Origin: Anaerolineae bacterium
GTDB lineage: Bacteria; Chloroflexota; Anaerolineae; Anaerolineales; UBA11657
Direction: 5' to 3'
Length of the DNA stretch: 53,812 nucleotides
NCBI GenBank assembly: GCA_963578565.1
Contig: CAUZCX010000003.1
Coordinates: forward strand, 1 to 53,812
In this document: positions 1,979 to 10,922 of the stretch, piece after piece
Position numbering within the stretch: position 1 is the stretch's first letter
Layout: each line of letters begins with the position of its first letter
The notes under the pieces: generated by a model
What the model was told of the DNA's origin: nothing
Databases searched by the model: none
Seen by the model: only the letters and a program-made list of their open reading frames with translations
Position numbers and translations under genes: made by a program

Positions 1979-2259
1979 GATGCACTCTCCGGTTCAGTGC
2001 TCAGACAAAAGCATATCCTTAACGGGCAAGTACAAATAGATTAATATTAGCACAATTGGGAAAACTAGAAAACAAACTGTCGCGCCGCACAGTGCCGTTG
2101 ATTCCGCTTCATATGATCAGGATAGACACAGCCAGATTATGGCGCAGTGAATCGGGCGCTTCCGACGAGTGATTTGTGACATGCTACGGATCTGGTTATC
2201 CTGTCATTGAACCTGACGGGTGATCTAAGCGACAGGCATATGTGGCCGGAGGAGCGTGT

Positions 2260-4023
2260 TCAGCGCTGCAGTTCAGTCGCTATCAAGTTGTCCCATTCTA
2301 GCTGCAGCTGATGCGATTCTACCGAGCGTGCGAACACCCCGAACTCGCCCGAGGTGACTTCATCCAGTCCCTCCACAAAGAGGCGATCAACATACGTGCC
2401 GTTAACGTACAGGCTGAATCCGTCCCGTTGCAACAGTACTCCCAACCGGTACACACCCGGACCGTCGGGCACAGCATCGGAAGCAGCCACGCGCAAATCT
2501 TCGTAAATGTCATTTTGCTGGCGCACCAACCGGTAGTTGCCCTCGCAGGTGATTGTGGCCGCATAATAATCCGGAAGCCTGGCCTTGAAAATCAGTCCAT
2601 AATAATCTTTACCTGTGCAAGCTTCCACGATTACATCGCCTTCATAGAGGAAATCGCGTTCGACCAGATGAAATGCGGGACCGGTAGAGTAAAACAGTTT
2701 CCCGCGCTGCTTCATGCTAAGTCGTAGTACGCCGTTAACAATGCCGGAATCCCAGAATTCGTTCCGGTCATAGCCCCACGGAAACTGTGTCGGCTCAAAA
2801 TCCTCCATCCATAGCACAGATACCGGCATCACAGTTGGGTCAAGGTCACTCACACTTTGCGGAATCGCAATCTCCCGAGTCGCGGCGGGCGGAGAGGTTA
2901 CGCTGGGGGCGATTGTCGGTTTGGGTGTTGTGGACGGCGGATGCAAGGTTGCTGCAGGAGATATCTTAGTGGCGGCGAGCAAACTGGTTGCGCTGTCGGC
3001 CAGGGCGAAAACAGTGCTGGTAGGCTCAGTTCCGCTCTGAGTGCTAGTCGCAGAGGGTGCAACATGCGTGGGGGCGATTGCTGGATCTGTTGCTCGCGAA
3101 GAGAATATAGACTGCGTAATTGCATCACCGAACCATCCATAAGCCTGCAAAACGCTCATTACTAGCGCTGCAATCACCGCCGCACCCAATAAACGCCTCC
3201 GGTTTCGTCGGGGACGCATGCCGAATTCGATTTCCACGGTTTTCCAGTCTCGGCGCAATTCTCTGGTAACAAGACGCGTCGCCTGGAATACCTCCCCTTC
3301 CAAGATTTCCGGGGCAATACGAACCGGAGCTTTGCCATCCACAATTCGCGGCCCGAAAAGCTCCTGAACCGTCTCAACTTCCAGTGGGTCGGCTTGTACC
3401 ACAGTTCTATCCGCGTCAGCCGTGGACAGAACATCCTCCTCGTCAAAGGAAGGCATTGAGTCAATTTCAAAAGCCTGTACCACCGCACCCTTTTCCTCAG
3501 CTTGTACGTATTCTTCTTGCCTCGACTGGAGTACTGGGATGGAATGCGCTGCACGCGGGACACGCCAATGCTGGCGGAGAGCCACGTAAAGCTTCGGACC
3601 CACACCCCTGACACGCTGCAGTTCTGCCAGCCGGATATACGGCCTTCCAGCCACAATTGCCTCAGCGAGAGTCCCTCCGACACCGGGTAGTGCGGATAAT
3701 TCCTGCATTGTGGCTCTATTGAGATCCAGCTTCGCGGATGGTGTATCCGCTGGTGGAACGGCCTCACTCTCGGGCGCGGCCGCAATGGCCAACCCGATCT
3801 GCGATACGCTGACATGCGTCTTGAGAACAAAGAACAGTTTTTCCCCAATCCCTGGGACATGCCTAAGATCGGAGAGCCGGCGATAGGGACGCCCGGCCAT
3901 GATAGCGCTAGCAATCCCAGGGCCCACCTGTGGCAGCCGCAGCAGCTCGGTAAAAGGGGCAGTGTTTAAATCAGCTTTATGAGAACGAGACACCATCATC
4001 AGGTCACGGCGCAGGGAATACAC
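2260..4023 (-). CDS. Membrane protein with two N-terminal ComEA-like (HhH)2 repeats, one TM helix, a Pro/Thr/Ser linker and a C-terminal beta-rich domain (DUF1080/ConA-like by eye)
   Basis: Repeats DLNTAPFTELLRLPQVGPGIASAIMAGRPY..VPGIGEK and DLNRATMQELSALPGVGGTLAEAIVAGRPY..VRGVGPK; RPRRNRRR followed by hydrophobic LLGAAVIAALVMSVLQAYGWF; C-terminal WMEDFE..YYGLIF..YRLGV..FSLYVNG..GEFGVF..WDNL. Start may be GTG 4023 or ATG 3999. Confidence 0.8.
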   Translation of the reverse strand: MYSLRRDLMMVSRSHKADLNTAPFTELLRLPQVGPGIASAIMAGRPYRRLSDLRHVPGIGEKLFFVLKTHVSVSQIGLAIAAAPESEAVPPADTPSAKLDLNRATMQELSALPGVGGTLAEAIVAGRPYIRLAELQRVRGVGPKLYVALRQHWRVPRAAHSIPVLQSRQEEYVQAEEKGAVVQAFEIDSMPSFDEEDVLSTADADRTVVQADPLEVETVQELFGPRIVDGKAPVRIAPEILEGEVFQATRLVTRELRRDWKTVEIEFGMRPRRNRRRLLGAAVIAALVMSVLQAYGWFGDAITQSIFSSRATDPAIAPTHVAPSATSTQSGTEPTSTVFALADSATSLLAATKISPAATLHPPSTTPKPTIAPSVTSPPAATREIAIPQSVSDLDPTVMPVSVLWMEDFEPTQFPWGYDRNEFWDSGIVNGVLRLSMKQRGKLFYSTGPAFHLVERDFLYEGDVIVEACTGKDYYGLIFKARLPDYYAATITCEGNYRLVRQQNDIYEDLRVAASDAVPDGPGVYRLGVLLQRDGFSLYVNGTYVDRLFVEGLDEVTSGEFGVFARSVESHQLQLEWDNLIATELQR

Positions 4024-5097
4024 TCATGGCAGCAATCCACCTACCCGCACAGAACCAGAAAAAAACAAGAGCAGCATACCAGCGATCAGGGCAAACGCCA
4101 GCACCCAGCCGGAGATAAACAGGGGCATGCGCCGGCGGATCTCCTGCGCGACTGCAGCCTCGTACGCCACCAGTGACATTACCGAGTCGCGCACTTGCGG
4201 TAAGCCCGACGCGTTTTCAAAATAGGAGGGTTCGAAATCATCCTCCGTGAACCAGTGCTCGTCCTCCACGAACTCTGCTTCGACTGCTGTTGGGGGCATG
4301 GAATGGAGTTCACATGCCTGGCGCAAACGCGCCAACACGCCCATACCAACTCCTTTCAGCTCCAGCAGCTCCTCCCAGTGCGTATAGGGTCGCCCCAAAA
4401 TGATGCGCATCGCCAGCTCCGGACCAACGCTGCGCAGTCGCTGCATCTCCTGCGGACTACATGTGTTCAAGTCCGGGCGCTCAGACGGAGCTCGTGCGCG
4501 AACCGACAATCGTGTACGTAACGGCGAGAAAATGGCCGGGCCGATGCCCTTGACCTCGAGGAGAGAATCAACATCTACAAACGGACGAGCCAACACGATT
4601 CTGCGCGCCAGCGCCGGGCCAACGCGTGGCAGCCCACACAGGGAGGCTTCATCACATGAATTCAGATCGAGAAGCTCTACATCCGGTGAGACCTGTGCCG
4701 GGTGCTCAAACGAATGTCGGTCATCAACATCAGCGCGCTGGCGCAGCGTGAGCATCACTGCCTGACTGATGCCTTTTACTCCATACAGCTCATCCAATGT
4801 GGAGTACGGGCGCGCGGCGATGATGCGCCGCGCCAGAATTGCACCCAAGCCGGGGAGCCCCTGCAATGCCTCTGGTGCACACGTATTAATGTTGATGGGT
4901 GATGGAGGGACTACCCGCGCAACCGCGGCAAGATCGCGCAGGGTCTTCCTGCCGAATCCCGGCAGCATGCGCAACTCAGTGTCTTCCCAGAATGGGCGCG
5001 CATTTACTAGTACCTCCACCTTGCGAATATCTAGCGCCGTCTCTCGAAGCAGCGTTGTAGGGTCGGCTGAATTCAGGTCGATGTGGCGGCCATCCAT
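4024..5097 (-). CDS. Protein with four tandem ComEA-like (HhH)2 repeats, an acidic linker and a C-terminal TM anchor
   Basis: Four repeats beginning IDLNSA, ININTC, LDLNSC and PDLNTC, each with an RP(F/Y) motif and a VKGIG-like second hairpin; the LPGxG-type first hairpin is degenerate in repeat 1. Then IRRR and hydrophobic MPLFISGWVLAFALIAGMLLLFF. ATG 5097 preferred over GTG 5106 because an extended -10 lies at 5107-5115. Confidence 0.85.
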   Translation of the reverse strand: MDGRHIDLNSADPTTLLRETALDIRKVEVLVNARPFWEDTELRMLPGFGRKTLRDLAAVARVVPPSPININTCAPEALQGLPGLGAILARRIIAARPYSTLDELYGVKGISQAVMLTLRQRADVDDRHSFEHPAQVSPDVELLDLNSCDEASLCGLPRVGPALARRIVLARPFVDVDSLLEVKGIGPAIFSPLRTRLSVRARAPSERPDLNTCSPQEMQRLRSVGPELAMRIILGRPYTHWEELLELKGVGMGVLARLRQACELHSMPPTAVEAEFVEDEHWFTEDDFEPSYFENASGLPQVRDSVMSLVAYEAAVAQEIRRRMPLFISGWVLAFALIAGMLLLFFSGSVRVGGLLP

Positions 5098-5106
5098 GGC
5101 ACGCAC

Positions 5107-5115
5107 ATTTTAGCA
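5107..5115 (-). promoter_or_regulatory. Extended -10 element (TGcTAAAAT) for the HhH gene pair
   Basis: Minus strand TGCTAAAAT ends 9 nt before ATG 5097; no obvious SD sequence. Confidence 0.45.
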
Positions 5116-5257
5116 TAACGGCAGAAAGGGCAGGCGTTAACCGCCCGAATTTATATCACGGCAAGGGAGGGATTGCTGTGCTTATGGATTTTCTAGGGAA
5201 CTTGAGAAACAGCCCGGCGACCACCATCCGAGCATAAACTAGGGATATTCCCAATGT

Positions 5258-5578
5258 TTAGAACTGAAAATGCCGCCGCAGTGGCACCACCCGGCAGCGG
5301 TAGTTGCTCACAAATTCCTGAAGCCGTTCTTCGAGCGCGTAGAATTCCGCGCTCTCCAACACCTCGTTGGCGGTATCCTCGCCTTCCGCCACAAACGTAA
5401 CTAACCTGATGGGATAATCACCCGCAGCAGTGTGCCAAGCCTCCACCATAGAGAGCCCAAGTTTGTCCAGTGTAGGCACCATTTTCTTGAGCATAAATTT
5501 ATAATAACCCTCCGCAGAATGCGGATTGATATCATAAGTCAGTAAAACTTTAACGTAATCTTCCAGGCCCTCTGGCAT
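5258..5578 (-). CDS. Small hypothetical protein, NIPSNAP/dimeric alpha-beta barrel-like
   Basis: VKVLLTYDINP..YYKFM..MVPTLDKLGLSMVEAWHTAAGDYP..EFYALEERLQEFVSNYRCRVV; ATG 5578 with upstream GCAGGCGG and TGaTATAAT at 5610-5618. Confidence 0.6.
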   Translation of the reverse strand: MPEGLEDYVKVLLTYDINPHSAEGYYKFMLKKMVPTLDKLGLSMVEAWHTAAGDYPIRLVTFVAEGEDTANEVLESAEFYALEERLQEFVSNYRCRVVPLRRHFQF

Positions 5579-5649
5579 CACGCACCGCCTGCAACGGGAA
5601 CCGACTGAAATTATATCATCCGCAAAGCATTCCACTGATACAATTAGGT

Positions 5650-6944
5650 ATCGCCTCCGATCCGCCGCCACCTCTGTTCGACGTGCACCGCGTCCGCGCT
5701 AGATTCCCCGCCCTTGCCATCACGGACAATGGCGGGGCGCGAATTTATCTGGATAACCCCGGAGGCACGCAGCTGCAGCTGCCACGATCTGCTCTGGAGC
5801 GCATGCAACATTACCTGCTGCGTCAAAACTCCAACCGCGGCGGCGTCTTCCGTACCTCTGTGGAAACCGATCGGCTGCTAAGTGAATCGCGCCGTGCCAT
5901 GGCGGACTTTCTCAACGCTCATTCCGAGTGTGAAATAGTCTTTGGCGCGAACATGACCAGCCTGACATTCACGCTCTCGCGCGCCATGAAGCACTCGCTG
6001 AATCCCGATGATGAGATTAGAGTCTCCCGGTTAGACCACGATGGAAACATAGCACCCTGGCTGCGCCTTGCGGCAGACGCCGGCGCGCGTATCCGCTGGC
6101 TGGATTTCAACCCAACGGATTGCACGCTCAACATGGATGAACTTAAAGAATTGCTAAGCGACAAGACTCCTGACGATTGGTTGCGCGTCAAACGCCGTGG
6201 GAACCATAAGCCCGGTGCAGCAGATGGCGGCTCTGGCACACTCCGTCGACGCGATGGTCTTCGTGGACGCGGTGCAGTACGTTCCCCATGCCCCTGTGGA
6301 TGTGCAAACACTAGGCGCCAATTTCCTGATCTGCACCCTACAGTTTCTTCGGGCCGCATCAGGGCGTGCTCTGGGGGCACTACGATCTACTCGACCGGCT
6401 GCCCGCCTACAAAGTGCGTCCATCGGGAGAGCGACCGCCAAACAAATTTGAGGCCGGCACCCAGAATCACGAGGGGCAGGCGGGAACCTTGGGCGCGCTC
6501 GAACATCTAGCCTGGGTCGGCAGCCAGTTTGGGACCGAGTTTAACGGTCAGTTCCCTGAGTTCACACAAAGGAAACTAAAGCTGGACAGCGGCATGTCTG
6601 CTATCCAGGCTTACGAAATGACACTCAGCGCGCACCTTATCGACGGACTCCAGCAAATTCCTGGTGTAAGATTCTGGGGGATCACAGATAAGCAGCGGCT
6701 TGACGAGCGCGTACCAACCATAGCTTTCACCATGACGGGGCACGCCCCTCGGGAAATCGCCGAACGCCTGGCAGAGCATAATGTCTTTGTCTGGGATGGG
6801 CATTATTACGCCGTAGAAGTGGCGGAGCGGCTTGGATTAGCGCATAGCGGAGGCATGGTGCGCGTAGGACCAGCACACTACAACACCGTTCATGAGTTGG
6901 ATAAGTTGCTTGATGTCCTAACCCGATTACAGCACGGTCAGTGA
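5650..6944 (+). pseudogene. Cysteine desulfurase-like protein (class V PLP aminotransferase, VC1184-like), disrupted by two frameshifts
   Basis: Homologous segments lie in three frames: IYLDNPGGTQ..IVFGANMTSL..LDHDGNIAPW (5683 frame); ASNAVGTISPV..FVDAVQYVPH (6197 frame); FFGPHQGVLWG..FEAGTQNHEG..WDGHYYA..GMVRVGPAHYNT (6366 frame). Shifts near 6170 and 6335. Confidence 0.8.
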
Positions 6945-6968
6945 ATTCCATCCCGCCACTTTGACGAA

Positions 6969-7041
6969 TACCCCGGGAGGGACTTGAACCCCCAACCTAG
7001 GCTTTAGGAGAGCCTCGCTCTTCCATTTGAGCTACCGGGGC
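6969..7041 (-). tRNA. tRNA-Arg(CCT)
   Basis: GCCCCGGTAGCTCAAATGGAAGAGCGAGGCTCTCCTAAAGCCTAGGTTGGGGGTTCAAGTCCCTCCCGGGGTA folds as a cloverleaf; anticodon stem AGGCT/AGCCT with loop CT-CCT-AA; A20 arginine identity element; G1-U72 pair; CCA not encoded. Confidence 0.95.
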
Positions 7042-7104
7042 ATAAAACTGCAACCCGGCCAGAGCCAACCGGAGAGTGAAATTAACTAGGCCGTAGCGTT
7101 GAGT

Positions 7105-9929: not shown

Positions 9930-10922
9930 TTACCATGTGTTGAGGTCATTAATAATACCCATTGAGCAAAACCGAACATAAACGTCACTAAAGCCAACCG
10001 ATAGCATACTGATCCAAGCAAACAACATATGCCTCTGGTTTAACCAGCTAACCCTCTTCCACAAATTAAATCTGATGCGTGAAACAATACTGCCAGAGAA
10101 ACAATTCGTGCTACCACCCACCAAATGTCGGCACGAATGACAACCAAATGTATACGTCGCCAGTAGTAAGGGATTGAGTAACAACACAATGGACCCAACA
10201 CCTATTCCCAAGCGCCCATAAAAAACAGCACCACCCTCCCACAATGATACAAATCCATCCCAGGACAGAATAGCGATATACCCACATGCTACATACCAAG
10301 TGAAGCGATGTAGATTCTGAAAGAGAAACAGCACTGTTTCCCCTTTGTACTGTATTGGCTTTGTGCTAATCGGACCGACAGCACACCCAGGCGGACTCAT
10401 GAAATATGAACGGTAATAAAACTTCCGATAGTAATAGCACGTCAAACGGAATGCTAAAGGACCGGCCAAGATCAACCAAGCTGGTGAAGTTGGAAAGAAT
10501 GGCGGCCAAATATAACTAATCCAGTCAGGCCATACACCAAACAAAGAATGCCCCACCGGGGCAGCGCCAACTCGCGAAATATCAACGAACAGAACGGGAG
10601 AGTACAACGGCGAAAGATATGATCCATGCCAATAATGCTCTCCCTGAAATGCAGCCCAGTTAGCATAAACCACAAAGGATAGAAATCCAAAACCGGTCCA
10701 TAAGGGTTCAAACCACCATCGATCTTTGCGCAGGGTCTGCCAGAAACCTGATACGTGACCCCCCTCTAAAGGAGAATTTATTAGACGCGGAACTGAATCC
10801 GCCGCAACTATGAGGCGGTTAGCTTGATACAGTGCGATTGCTAGAGTGACTCCGCCACCTATCACTAACATGACTATAGCAGCCACTGCTATAACTAAGG
10901 GCTGTATCTCATCCATTAGCAA
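9930..10922 (-). CDS. sdhC: Succinate dehydrogenase membrane anchor, Rv0249c-like (mycobacterial Sdh1/type F)
   Basis: Multi-TM protein with YLSPLYSP, FRLTCYYYRK, FQNLHRF, GCHSCRHLVGG and LNQRHMLFAWIS; directly upstream of sdhA. ATG 10916 is an alternative start. Confidence 0.8.
   Translation of the reverse strand: MLMDEIQPLVIAVAAIVMLVIGGGVTLAIALYQANRLIVAADSVPRLINSPLEGGHVSGFWQTLRKDRWWFEPLWTGFGFLSFVVYANWAAFQGEHYWHGSYLSPLYSPVLFVDISRVGAAPVGHSLFGVWPDWISYIWPPFFPTSPAWLILAGPLAFRLTCYYYRKFYYRSYFMSPPGCAVGPISTKPIQYKGETVLFLFQNLHRFTWYVACGYIAILSWDGFVSLWEGGAVFYGRLGIGVGSIVLLLNPLLLATYTFGCHSCRHLVGGSTNCFSGSIVSRIRFNLWKRVSWLNQRHMLFAWISMLSVGFSDVYVRFCSMGIINDLNTW

Follow-up and report, generated by a model that had tools for sequence, protein, structure and literature searches.

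A conserved pair of single-pass membrane proteins in Anaerolineales carries ComEA-type modules predicted to face the cytoplasm

The stretch of DNA analysed here, which we call the window, covers 53,812 nucleotides (nt) of contig CAUZCX010000003.1 in the assembly of an Anaerolineae bacterium (GCA_963578565.1; order Anaerolineales). It contains two abutting minus-strand open reading frames (ORFs), designated A and B (Table 1), which code for predicted single-pass membrane proteins with double helix-hairpin-helix (HhH) modules like those of the DNA-uptake receptor ComEA. Matches to the family PF12836 (HHH_3; cut-off, 27 bits) cover four stretches of A (E = 2.7e-38, 130 bits) and two of B (E = 8.8e-23, 81 bits) and are far beyond chance. 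They bear out the six ComEA-like repeats (4+2) that an earlier reading of the letters alone (hereafter the sequence-only reading) had assigned to two adjacent genes on the same strand. A and B are also the only HHH_3 matches in the assembly, which comprises 1.63 Mb and is 88% complete.

Each protein has a single strongly hydrophobic segment that lies C-terminal to the repeats, behind the arginine clusters to which the same reading had drawn attention. The hydrophobic 19-residue window peaks at residues 329–347 in A (Kyte-Doolittle 2.44), 13 residues from the end of the protein and after IRRR, and at residues 278–296 in B (1.94), after RPRRNRRR. A lacks an N-terminal signal and carries its only helix near the C-terminus, the features of the tail-anchored class exemplified by E. 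coli ElaB (PMC6389858). We also considered the helix of A as a sortase- or exosortase-type C-terminal sorting signal but rejected it, because the protein has no N-terminal signal and the arginine cluster precedes the helix rather than following it. An AlphaFold2 (AF2) model of B residues 10–310, built from 23 sequences, has two folded double-hairpin modules (predicted local distance difference test, pLDDT, 85–94), a linker (model residues 150–260) mostly below pLDDT 50 and one long helix at model residues 266–298 (ORF residues 275–307).

Table 1. Predicted features of the A and B genes and neighbouring ORFs, in window coordinates
Feature	Position	Strand	Residues	Remarks
Gene A, longest ORF	4024..5106	minus	360 aa	tail-anchored: four HhH modules, acidic linker, one C-terminal helix
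A repeat 1	4912..5085	minus	8–65	first hairpin degenerate, second LPGFG; best-conserved A repeat
A repeat 2	4726..4899	minus	70–127	hairpins LPGLG, VKGIS
A repeat 3	4504..4677	minus	144–201	hairpins LPRVG, VKGIG
A repeat 4	4306..4479	minus	210–267	hairpins LRSVG, LKGVG
A acidic linker and juxtamembrane segment	4126..4305	minus		linker net -10; juxtamembrane segment 301–327, ending IRRR
A transmembrane helix	4057..4125	minus	328–350	predicted
A tail and stop	4024-4056	minus		10 residues and TGA
Gene B, longest ORF	2260..4023	minus	587 aa	predicted bitopic N-in/C-out protein
B repeat 1	3805..3978	minus	16–73	hairpins LPQVG, VPGIG; net +4
B repeat 2	3559..3732	minus	98–155	hairpins LPGVG, VRGVG; net +5
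B acidic linker	3220..3558	minus	156–268	net -12, predicted disordered
B acidic linker, conserved motif	3337-3393	minus	211–229	11 of 19 columns at least 90% conserved
B arginine cluster and transmembrane helix	3127..3219	minus	269–299	RPRRNRRR; Gln293 invariant
B P/T/S-rich linker	2824..3126	minus	300–400	predicted extracytoplasmic; 46% P+T+S, poorly conserved
B C-terminal domain	2263..2823	minus	401–587	predicted concanavalin-A-like beta-sandwich; cysteines C469 and C493 invariant
ORF directly upstream of A	5258-5671	minus	137 aa	no Pfam or PADLOC match
Class-V aminotransferase gene	5683-6944	plus		split: overlapping ORFs 5683-6510 and 6366-6944
ORF next to succinate dehydrogenase flavoprotein gene	9930-10922	minus	330 aa	no Pfam match

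The gene boundaries matter for the predicted topology and were refined by alignment. Comparison with 27 A orthologues places the likely start at the ATG at 5097 (M4), giving 357 amino acids (aa), and the ESM Atlas record of A likewise begins at residue 4. Similarly, 19 B orthologues point to the ATG at 3996 (M10) and a protein of 578 aa. A TAA lies two codons 5' of A's GTG, and A's TGA lies in frame nine codons 5' of B's ATG, so that neither protein can be extended to carry a signal peptide. Read-through of this TGA into B was rejected; the stop is kept in orthologues, and a fusion would place the B repeats outside the cell. Pieces of seawater-run contigs identical to the window span the A/B junction (X3 record 3 and X5 record 19; contigs of four runs, positions 2000-7100), so the stop between the genes is not peculiar to this assembly. 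The runs that hold the stretch are seawater metagenomes.

The sequence-only reading had called the pair a two-gene operon. Same-strand adjacency is observed, and co-transcription is likely, given the 27-nt gap without a predicted terminator and the 4-nt overlap of the two genes in a related genus; the promoter and terminator scan was uninformative, with fewer sites than in shuffled sequence. The 27-nt spacing from TGA to ATG (window 3997-4026) also occurs in three related genomes (G003, G011 and G008) and is 35 nt in G001.

The repeats of A and B almost certainly face the cytoplasm, as the sequence-only reading had proposed and opposite to those of ComEA, which has an N-terminal anchor or cleaved signal and holds its DNA-binding module outside the cytoplasm, as described in PMC9747964. 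Neither protein has a signal peptide or room for one: the first 60 residues lack a hydrophobic core (hydropathy maxima of 0.40 in A and 0.84 in B), and the stops upstream bar any extension. The positive charges around each helix lie mostly on its N-side, with three lysines and arginines in the 15 residues before the helix in A, five in B and one in each protein after it; under the positive-inside rule this side is cytoplasmic. Furthermore, 270–325 residues of folded modules ahead of a protein's only helix are not exported without a signal. The relatives of the B end domain point the same way. Among 148 representatives surveyed for the location of the domain, 90 have a hydrophobic segment within the first 60 residues, 13 have HhH modules plus a helix and 5 another N-terminal part plus a helix; the domain stands at the very N-terminus in 16, no hydrophobic segment lies upstream in 12, and the last 12 are fragments. 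Most relatives thus sit behind a signal or an anchor, which marks the family as extracytoplasmic by homology.

These observations bear on the simplest alternative, an ordinary ComEA-like uptake receptor whose repeats reach the outside through an unrecognised export route or whose genes are miscalled. ComEA models are the best-scoring named NCBIfam families for both proteins, and public records name relatives 'ComE-like DNA-binding protein' or 'ComE-like DNA uptake protein'. The scores, however, are low: TIGR01259 (comEA) gives 61.3 bits for A and 55.2 for B against a curated cut-off of 152.35, and TIGR00426 (repeat region) gives 39.8 and 42.2 bits against 53.1. The SLBB/oligomerisation domain of Gram-positive ComEA (PF10531), which canonical relatives do carry, is not among the Pfam matches of A or B. 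A receptor of this kind would also have to dispense with a signal peptide, would place its helix after all of the folded modules and would leave the outer domain and P/T/S linker of B in the cytoplasm, contrary to 108 of the 148 relatives. We therefore consider it highly improbable, the more so as the uptake channel is not found in the nearest genomes (see below).

The inverted arrangement is a feature specific to this clade and no accident. Among 64 A-type relatives (P0170-P0233), the helix follows the repeats in 62: three or four repeats begin at residue 5–30, and the helix falls within the final ~35 residues. The remaining two lack a helix, and one of them is a 210-aa piece. More distant multi-HhH proteins (P0234-P0268) have the ordinary ComEA arrangement, the helix preceding the repeats in 32 of 35. 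HhH modules occur in 33 of 168 proteins with a B-type end domain, and in all 33 they stand before the helix. An ESM Atlas search with A returned only its own Chloroflexota cluster at 0.93 and one weak match at 0.76.

B continues beyond the membrane into a linker rich in proline, threonine and serine (P/T/S) and a beta-rich domain, both of which the sequence-only reading had recognised. The AF2 model of residues 390–587 is all-beta, with 14 strands and a pLDDT of 93.9. A Foldseek search of the PDB gave CBM66 (4b1m_C) as the best match (E = 5.3e-9; TM-score, 0.75 on the target), followed by YesU (1oq1), legume lectins and GH16 enzymes. No Pfam family matches the domain itself at E <= 0.01; it has 460 representative relatives at E <= 1e-3, and in an alignment of 61 short relatives PF06439 (3keto-disac_hyd/DUF1080) is found in 20 and PF13385 (Laminin_G_3) in 14. 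As modelled, the domain is a concanavalin-A-like jelly roll, a fold it has in common with CBM66, DUF1080 and Laminin_G_3, although its identity to CBM66 is only ~15%. It probably binds carbohydrate, in keeping with the earlier suggestion of an external glycan- or wall-binding-like domain. The domain has two invariant cysteines (Table 1), and the cytoplasmic part of B has none.

An outer domain of this kind could also serve a transmembrane signal transducer. In such a device the outer domain or the P/T/S linker would sense a glycan or the state of the wall, and clustering or regulated intramembrane proteolysis would free or reposition the basic HhH array; the acidic linker would act as an internal inhibitor, much as in RsgI anti-sigma factors or ToxR/CadC receptors. 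The layout matches that of RsgI-type sensors (PMC12203970, PMC10328401, PMC9732909) and of membrane-integrated DNA-binding receptors such as CadC (PMC6320335). A basic array beside an acidic linker would suit autoinhibition, and among 31 relatives the same domain is joined to a Ser/Thr kinase in one and to a 'Sensor' domain in one. However, neither A nor B has an anti-sigma, winged helix-turn-helix (wHTH) or kinase domain, and the eight neighbouring ORFs scanned include neither a sigma factor nor a protease gene. HhH modules do not discriminate between DNA sequences, which fits gene-specific control poorly, and A has no sensor domain yet is strongly conserved. Signal transduction is thus a possible but rather unlikely role for the pair.

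The pair was found in all 12 sampled genomes of the same family, which include the genus of the assembly (g1) and the genera g2 and g3. The halves of B lie in two frames in G004 and are split over contigs in G002 and G012. Wherever flanks were fetched (two genomes each of g1, g2 and g3), the pair occupies the same site, with an amino-acid permease/Usp gene on one side and genes for class-V aminotransferase, succinate dehydrogenase and isocitrate dehydrogenase on the other. The layout of the two genes varies. In g1 the upstream gene (A) has four repeats and a helix, and the downstream gene (B) two repeats, a helix and the outer domain; g2 differs only in the three repeats of its A proteins (290 aa). 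In g3 both genes have the outer domain, the upstream protein (548–550 aa) with two repeats and the downstream one (696–710 aa) with three. Both genes likewise combine repeats, helix and domain in family f14 (three repeats upstream, one downstream) and in family f4 (one repeat each), and family f10 has a single gene with one repeat, helix and domain.

The presence of the outer domain in both genes of related genera, together with the alignment of A residues 3–347 to the upstream f14 protein, identifies A as a paralogue from which the outer domain was lost in the small-genome genera. In the ancestral form the HhH module is linked across the membrane with a lectin-like domain. When 300 further Chloroflexota genomes, evenly sampled, were searched, only one had a close match to the B end domain (E = 3e-13), and its 266-aa frame cannot accommodate the complete HhH-helix-domain architecture. 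The family is narrow. A profile search with 16 diverse HhH-transmembrane-domain proteins returned only known B orthologues and ordinary ComEA, within a reach limited by the word index. Taken together, the comparisons describe A and B as a conserved pair of paralogues, each crossing the membrane once, that is restricted to a few Anaerolineales families. Searches of the literature for HhH proteins with a tail anchor, for cytoplasmic ComEA in Chloroflexi and for HHH_3 with a transmembrane segment gave no paper describing this architecture. In G025:C1, a 6.4-Mb genome in a single contig, the two-gene locus matches twice with equal scores on opposite strands (~6348000-6366660 and 1-2103), one set running across the record start; the cause is an inverted duplication or else an artefact of the assembly.

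The distribution of the uptake channel ComEC (PF03772) argues against a role of the pair in DNA uptake. The sequence-only reading had noted that no comEC gene lies in the window, and we did not find one in the whole 88%-complete assembly either. ComEC scored above the cut-off in none of the three other g1 genomes and none of the six g2 genomes (70–93% complete), although incomplete assemblies cannot prove absence. All three g3 genomes have it, as do 27 of the 28 genomes from other families of the order, which suggests that the channel was lost in the streamlined marine genera g1 and g2. The pair has been kept where the channel is not detectable, and capture of incoming DNA, a role that the sequence-only reading had offered, is unlikely. 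The label 'ComE-like DNA uptake protein' is probably wrong as a statement of function.

The same reading had also raised the sensing of injected phage DNA. Only the geometry of the pair, with DNA-binding-type modules directly under the membrane, speaks for it. PADLOC returned no match for A, B or the ORF upstream of A, and the Pfam and NCBIfam matches of A and B include no effector domain such as a nuclease or NTPase. Furthermore, the fixed site between the permease and the aminotransferase/succinate dehydrogenase genes in three genera is unlike a defence island. An anti-phage sensor at the inner face of the membrane is for these reasons scarcely credible, and defence joins uptake among the unlikely roles.

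Several neighbours of the pair have features of their own (Table 1). The 137-aa ORF directly upstream of A has counterparts of 70–82% identity in the corresponding place in g1 and g3, where those of g3 are conserved from residue ~34–36 onwards; the g2 loci that were fetched did not show it. In the window, class-V aminotransferase is broken into overlapping ORFs that match Aminotran_5 positions 1–140 and 271–371, and its relatives have one ORF of ~430 aa. A contig of run X3 has small insertions at 6169 and 6173 in this gene, so that the break could reflect a variant of the assembly or the strain rather than a dead gene. Lastly, the 330-aa ORF adjoining the succinate dehydrogenase flavoprotein gene has ~74% identity to g2 relatives and may code for the membrane subunit of that enzyme.

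Our best guess for the pair is tethering of the chromosome to the envelope, another of the roles named in the sequence-only reading. Specifically, we propose, tentatively and short of calling it probable, a membrane-tethered cytoplasmic anchor for DNA or the nucleoid that is coupled to envelope glycan. On flexible tethers of ~110 residues, the basic modules of B, and possibly those of A, would bind double-stranded DNA of any sequence on the cytoplasmic side of the membrane. Outside, the P/T/S linker of B, with ~100 residues, would be long enough to cross the wall, and the outer domain would bind envelope glycan. A and B together would thereby couple the nucleoid to the envelope, and their helices and juxtamembrane segments, which are conserved, may mediate assembly. 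Within A, conservation peaks in repeat 1 and in the juxtamembrane segment 301–327, where 20 of 27 columns are at least 90% conserved. Its helix has a conserved face (P328, L329, S332, G333, W334, A337, I341 and G343), which, with Q293 of B, hints at assembly within the membrane. A complex prediction for whole A and B residues 10–310, run twice with alignments, scored 0.00 and was not used for or against binding.

Binding of DNA by the B repeats is probable, judging from their sequence. The array is basic (isoelectric point, pI, 10.4; net charge +7), and it keeps the glycine hairpins LPGVG, VPGIG and VRGVG. The nearest solved relative of the repeats is the Thermus ComEA-related protein 2DUY (E = 1e-12), and ComEA structures 8DSS and 8DFK are also matched. 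The lysine after each second hairpin of B (K62 and K144) is invariant in the 19 orthologues and aligns with the lysine of G-I-G-E-K in ComEA structures. By the spacing of 29, 4 and 2 residues with which we matched chain lysines to the numbering of PMC9747964, this residue corresponds to B. subtilis K193, whose G. stearothermophilus counterpart, K195, is in contact with phosphate in the model of that paper (PMC9747964). Ahmed et al. single out another lysine, B. subtilis K164, as the best-conserved of the DNA contacts of ComEA, and mutation of its G. stearothermophilus equivalent, K166, abolishes DNA binding (PMC9747964).

It is at K164 that the repeats depart from ComEA, and a number of observations weigh against the proposed nucleoid anchor. 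In a HMMER alignment B repeat 1 has isoleucine opposite the lysine of G-P-[AS]-K-A in 8DSS and 8DFK. Going by the register of the repeats, B repeat 2 and A repeats 2–4 have leucine at the K164 position, and A repeat 1 has lost its first glycine hairpin and with it lacks the hairpin that bears K164. The A array is also near neutral (pI 7.7, net +1), several of its hairpins are short of a glycine, and its pattern of conservation, highest in repeat 1 and next to the membrane, would fit contacts with protein as readily as with DNA. The Pfam family HHH_3 extends to PsbU and GspK, which are not known to bind DNA. The neighbouring genes are metabolic and uninformative on a role in DNA binding, and the orientation of the proteins is itself deduced from hydropathy, charge and homology. 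Leucine also occupies the K164 position in 2DUY, opposite the leucine of B repeat 2. On balance, the A repeats seem about equally likely to bind DNA or not. To count six DNA-binding repeats in the multivalent array of the sequence-only reading is an overstatement, with B basic but A near neutral and the ComEA lysine replaced. The A repeats 2–4 have a cysteine right after their starting N-[TS], where B and the ComEA structures have alanine, and C76 and C151 are invariant in 28 orthologues.

Several of these features would equally suit a protein scaffold, in which the HhH modules were re-used to bind a cytoskeletal, divisome or wall-synthesis partner at a site marked by the outer domain. PsbU, GspK and the helix-turn-helix (HTH) of RodZ are precedents, and PsbU and T2SSK models do match the repeats. 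The replaced signature lysine, the neutral and partly degenerate A array, the conserved short motifs in disordered linkers and the highly conserved juxtamembrane segment of A all favour such a scaffold, and a mycobacterial protein with a similar anchor, Rv3852, acts through binding Wag31 according to PMC8233713. In contrast, the B modules are strongly basic and have kept their glycine hairpins and the lysine of the second hairpin, and their best matches are ComEA proteins and not PsbU. B as a replacement for RodZ was rejected: the genome has a RodZ of its own (RodZ_C match in a 314-aa frame on contig C52) and two MreB genes elsewhere, so B does not take its place. We regard a scaffold as unlikely, though, like signal transduction and the tether, better placed than uptake or defence.

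If the nucleoid anchor is taken one step further, the pair would become a trans-envelope tether, with the lectin-like head of its wall-spanning linker holding an external glycan layer or sheath, and the position of the chromosome in these filamentous bacteria would be mechanically or informationally coupled to the cell surface. This bolder form is doubtful; if true, bacteria would have their own equivalent of the tethers that join chromatin to the nuclear envelope, made from a DNA-uptake module turned inside out. Should the arrays bind DNA, they would represent a new way of fastening the nucleoid to the envelope and the first such system described for Chloroflexota; should they bind proteins, they would offer another example of a DNA-binding fold put to new use as a scaffold. 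The architecture is unannotated either way, and both proteins are rich in soluble domains, which makes in vitro tests easy.

The closest working analogue of A is Rv3852 of M. tuberculosis, which PMC8233713 describes as a nucleoid-associated protein with a C-terminal membrane helix that organises wall synthesis through Wag31. It is a cytoplasmic DNA-binding protein that, as predicted for A, is fixed in the membrane by a helix at its C-terminus, and it has a link to envelope organisation (PMC8233713). However, its DNA-binding part is unrelated (annotated as H-NS-like, with no homology to A), it has no partner with an outer domain, and it belongs to a different phylum. B can be compared in topology with ToxR and CadC, in which a DNA-binding module at the cytoplasmic N-terminus is followed by one helix and by a sensing domain outside (PMC6320335). 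Their DNA-binding module is a sequence-specific winged-helix domain of the OmpR type, for which A and B have no Pfam or NCBIfam match. RsgI resembles B in having a cytoplasmic N-domain, a helix, a disordered extracytoplasmic linker and a carbohydrate-binding module, and such anti-sigma factors signal by intramembrane proteolysis, as described in PMC12203970, PMC9732909 and PMC10328401. Unlike RsgI, A and B lack an anti-sigma domain, and the scan of eight neighbouring ORFs turned up no sigma factor. A and B thus belong to none of these classes. RodZ follows the same general plan: a fold of DNA-binding type in the cytoplasm, a single helix, a disordered linker and, outside, a domain rich in beta-strands. 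Its cytoplasmic fold binds a protein, MreB, and is not known to bind DNA. The domains are unrelated, and HTH_25 and RodZ_C match neither A nor B.

ComEA-type modules are known as outward-facing DNA receptors for transformation. A and B have the HHH_3-type double module of ComEA and, like Gram-positive ComEA, are membrane-anchored. Unlike ComEA, their anchor follows the repeats without a signal peptide and in the opposite orientation, each chain has two to four modules instead of one, the oligomerisation domain is lacking, the signature lysine (B. subtilis K164) is replaced, the scores fall below the family cut-off, and ComEC was not found in the genomes of the two genera with tail-anchored A. 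In the features tested, A and B fail five that define ComEA and share one, the module itself. What is new is the predicted placement of this module, which forms arrays at the inner face of the membrane in lineages where ComEC was not found.

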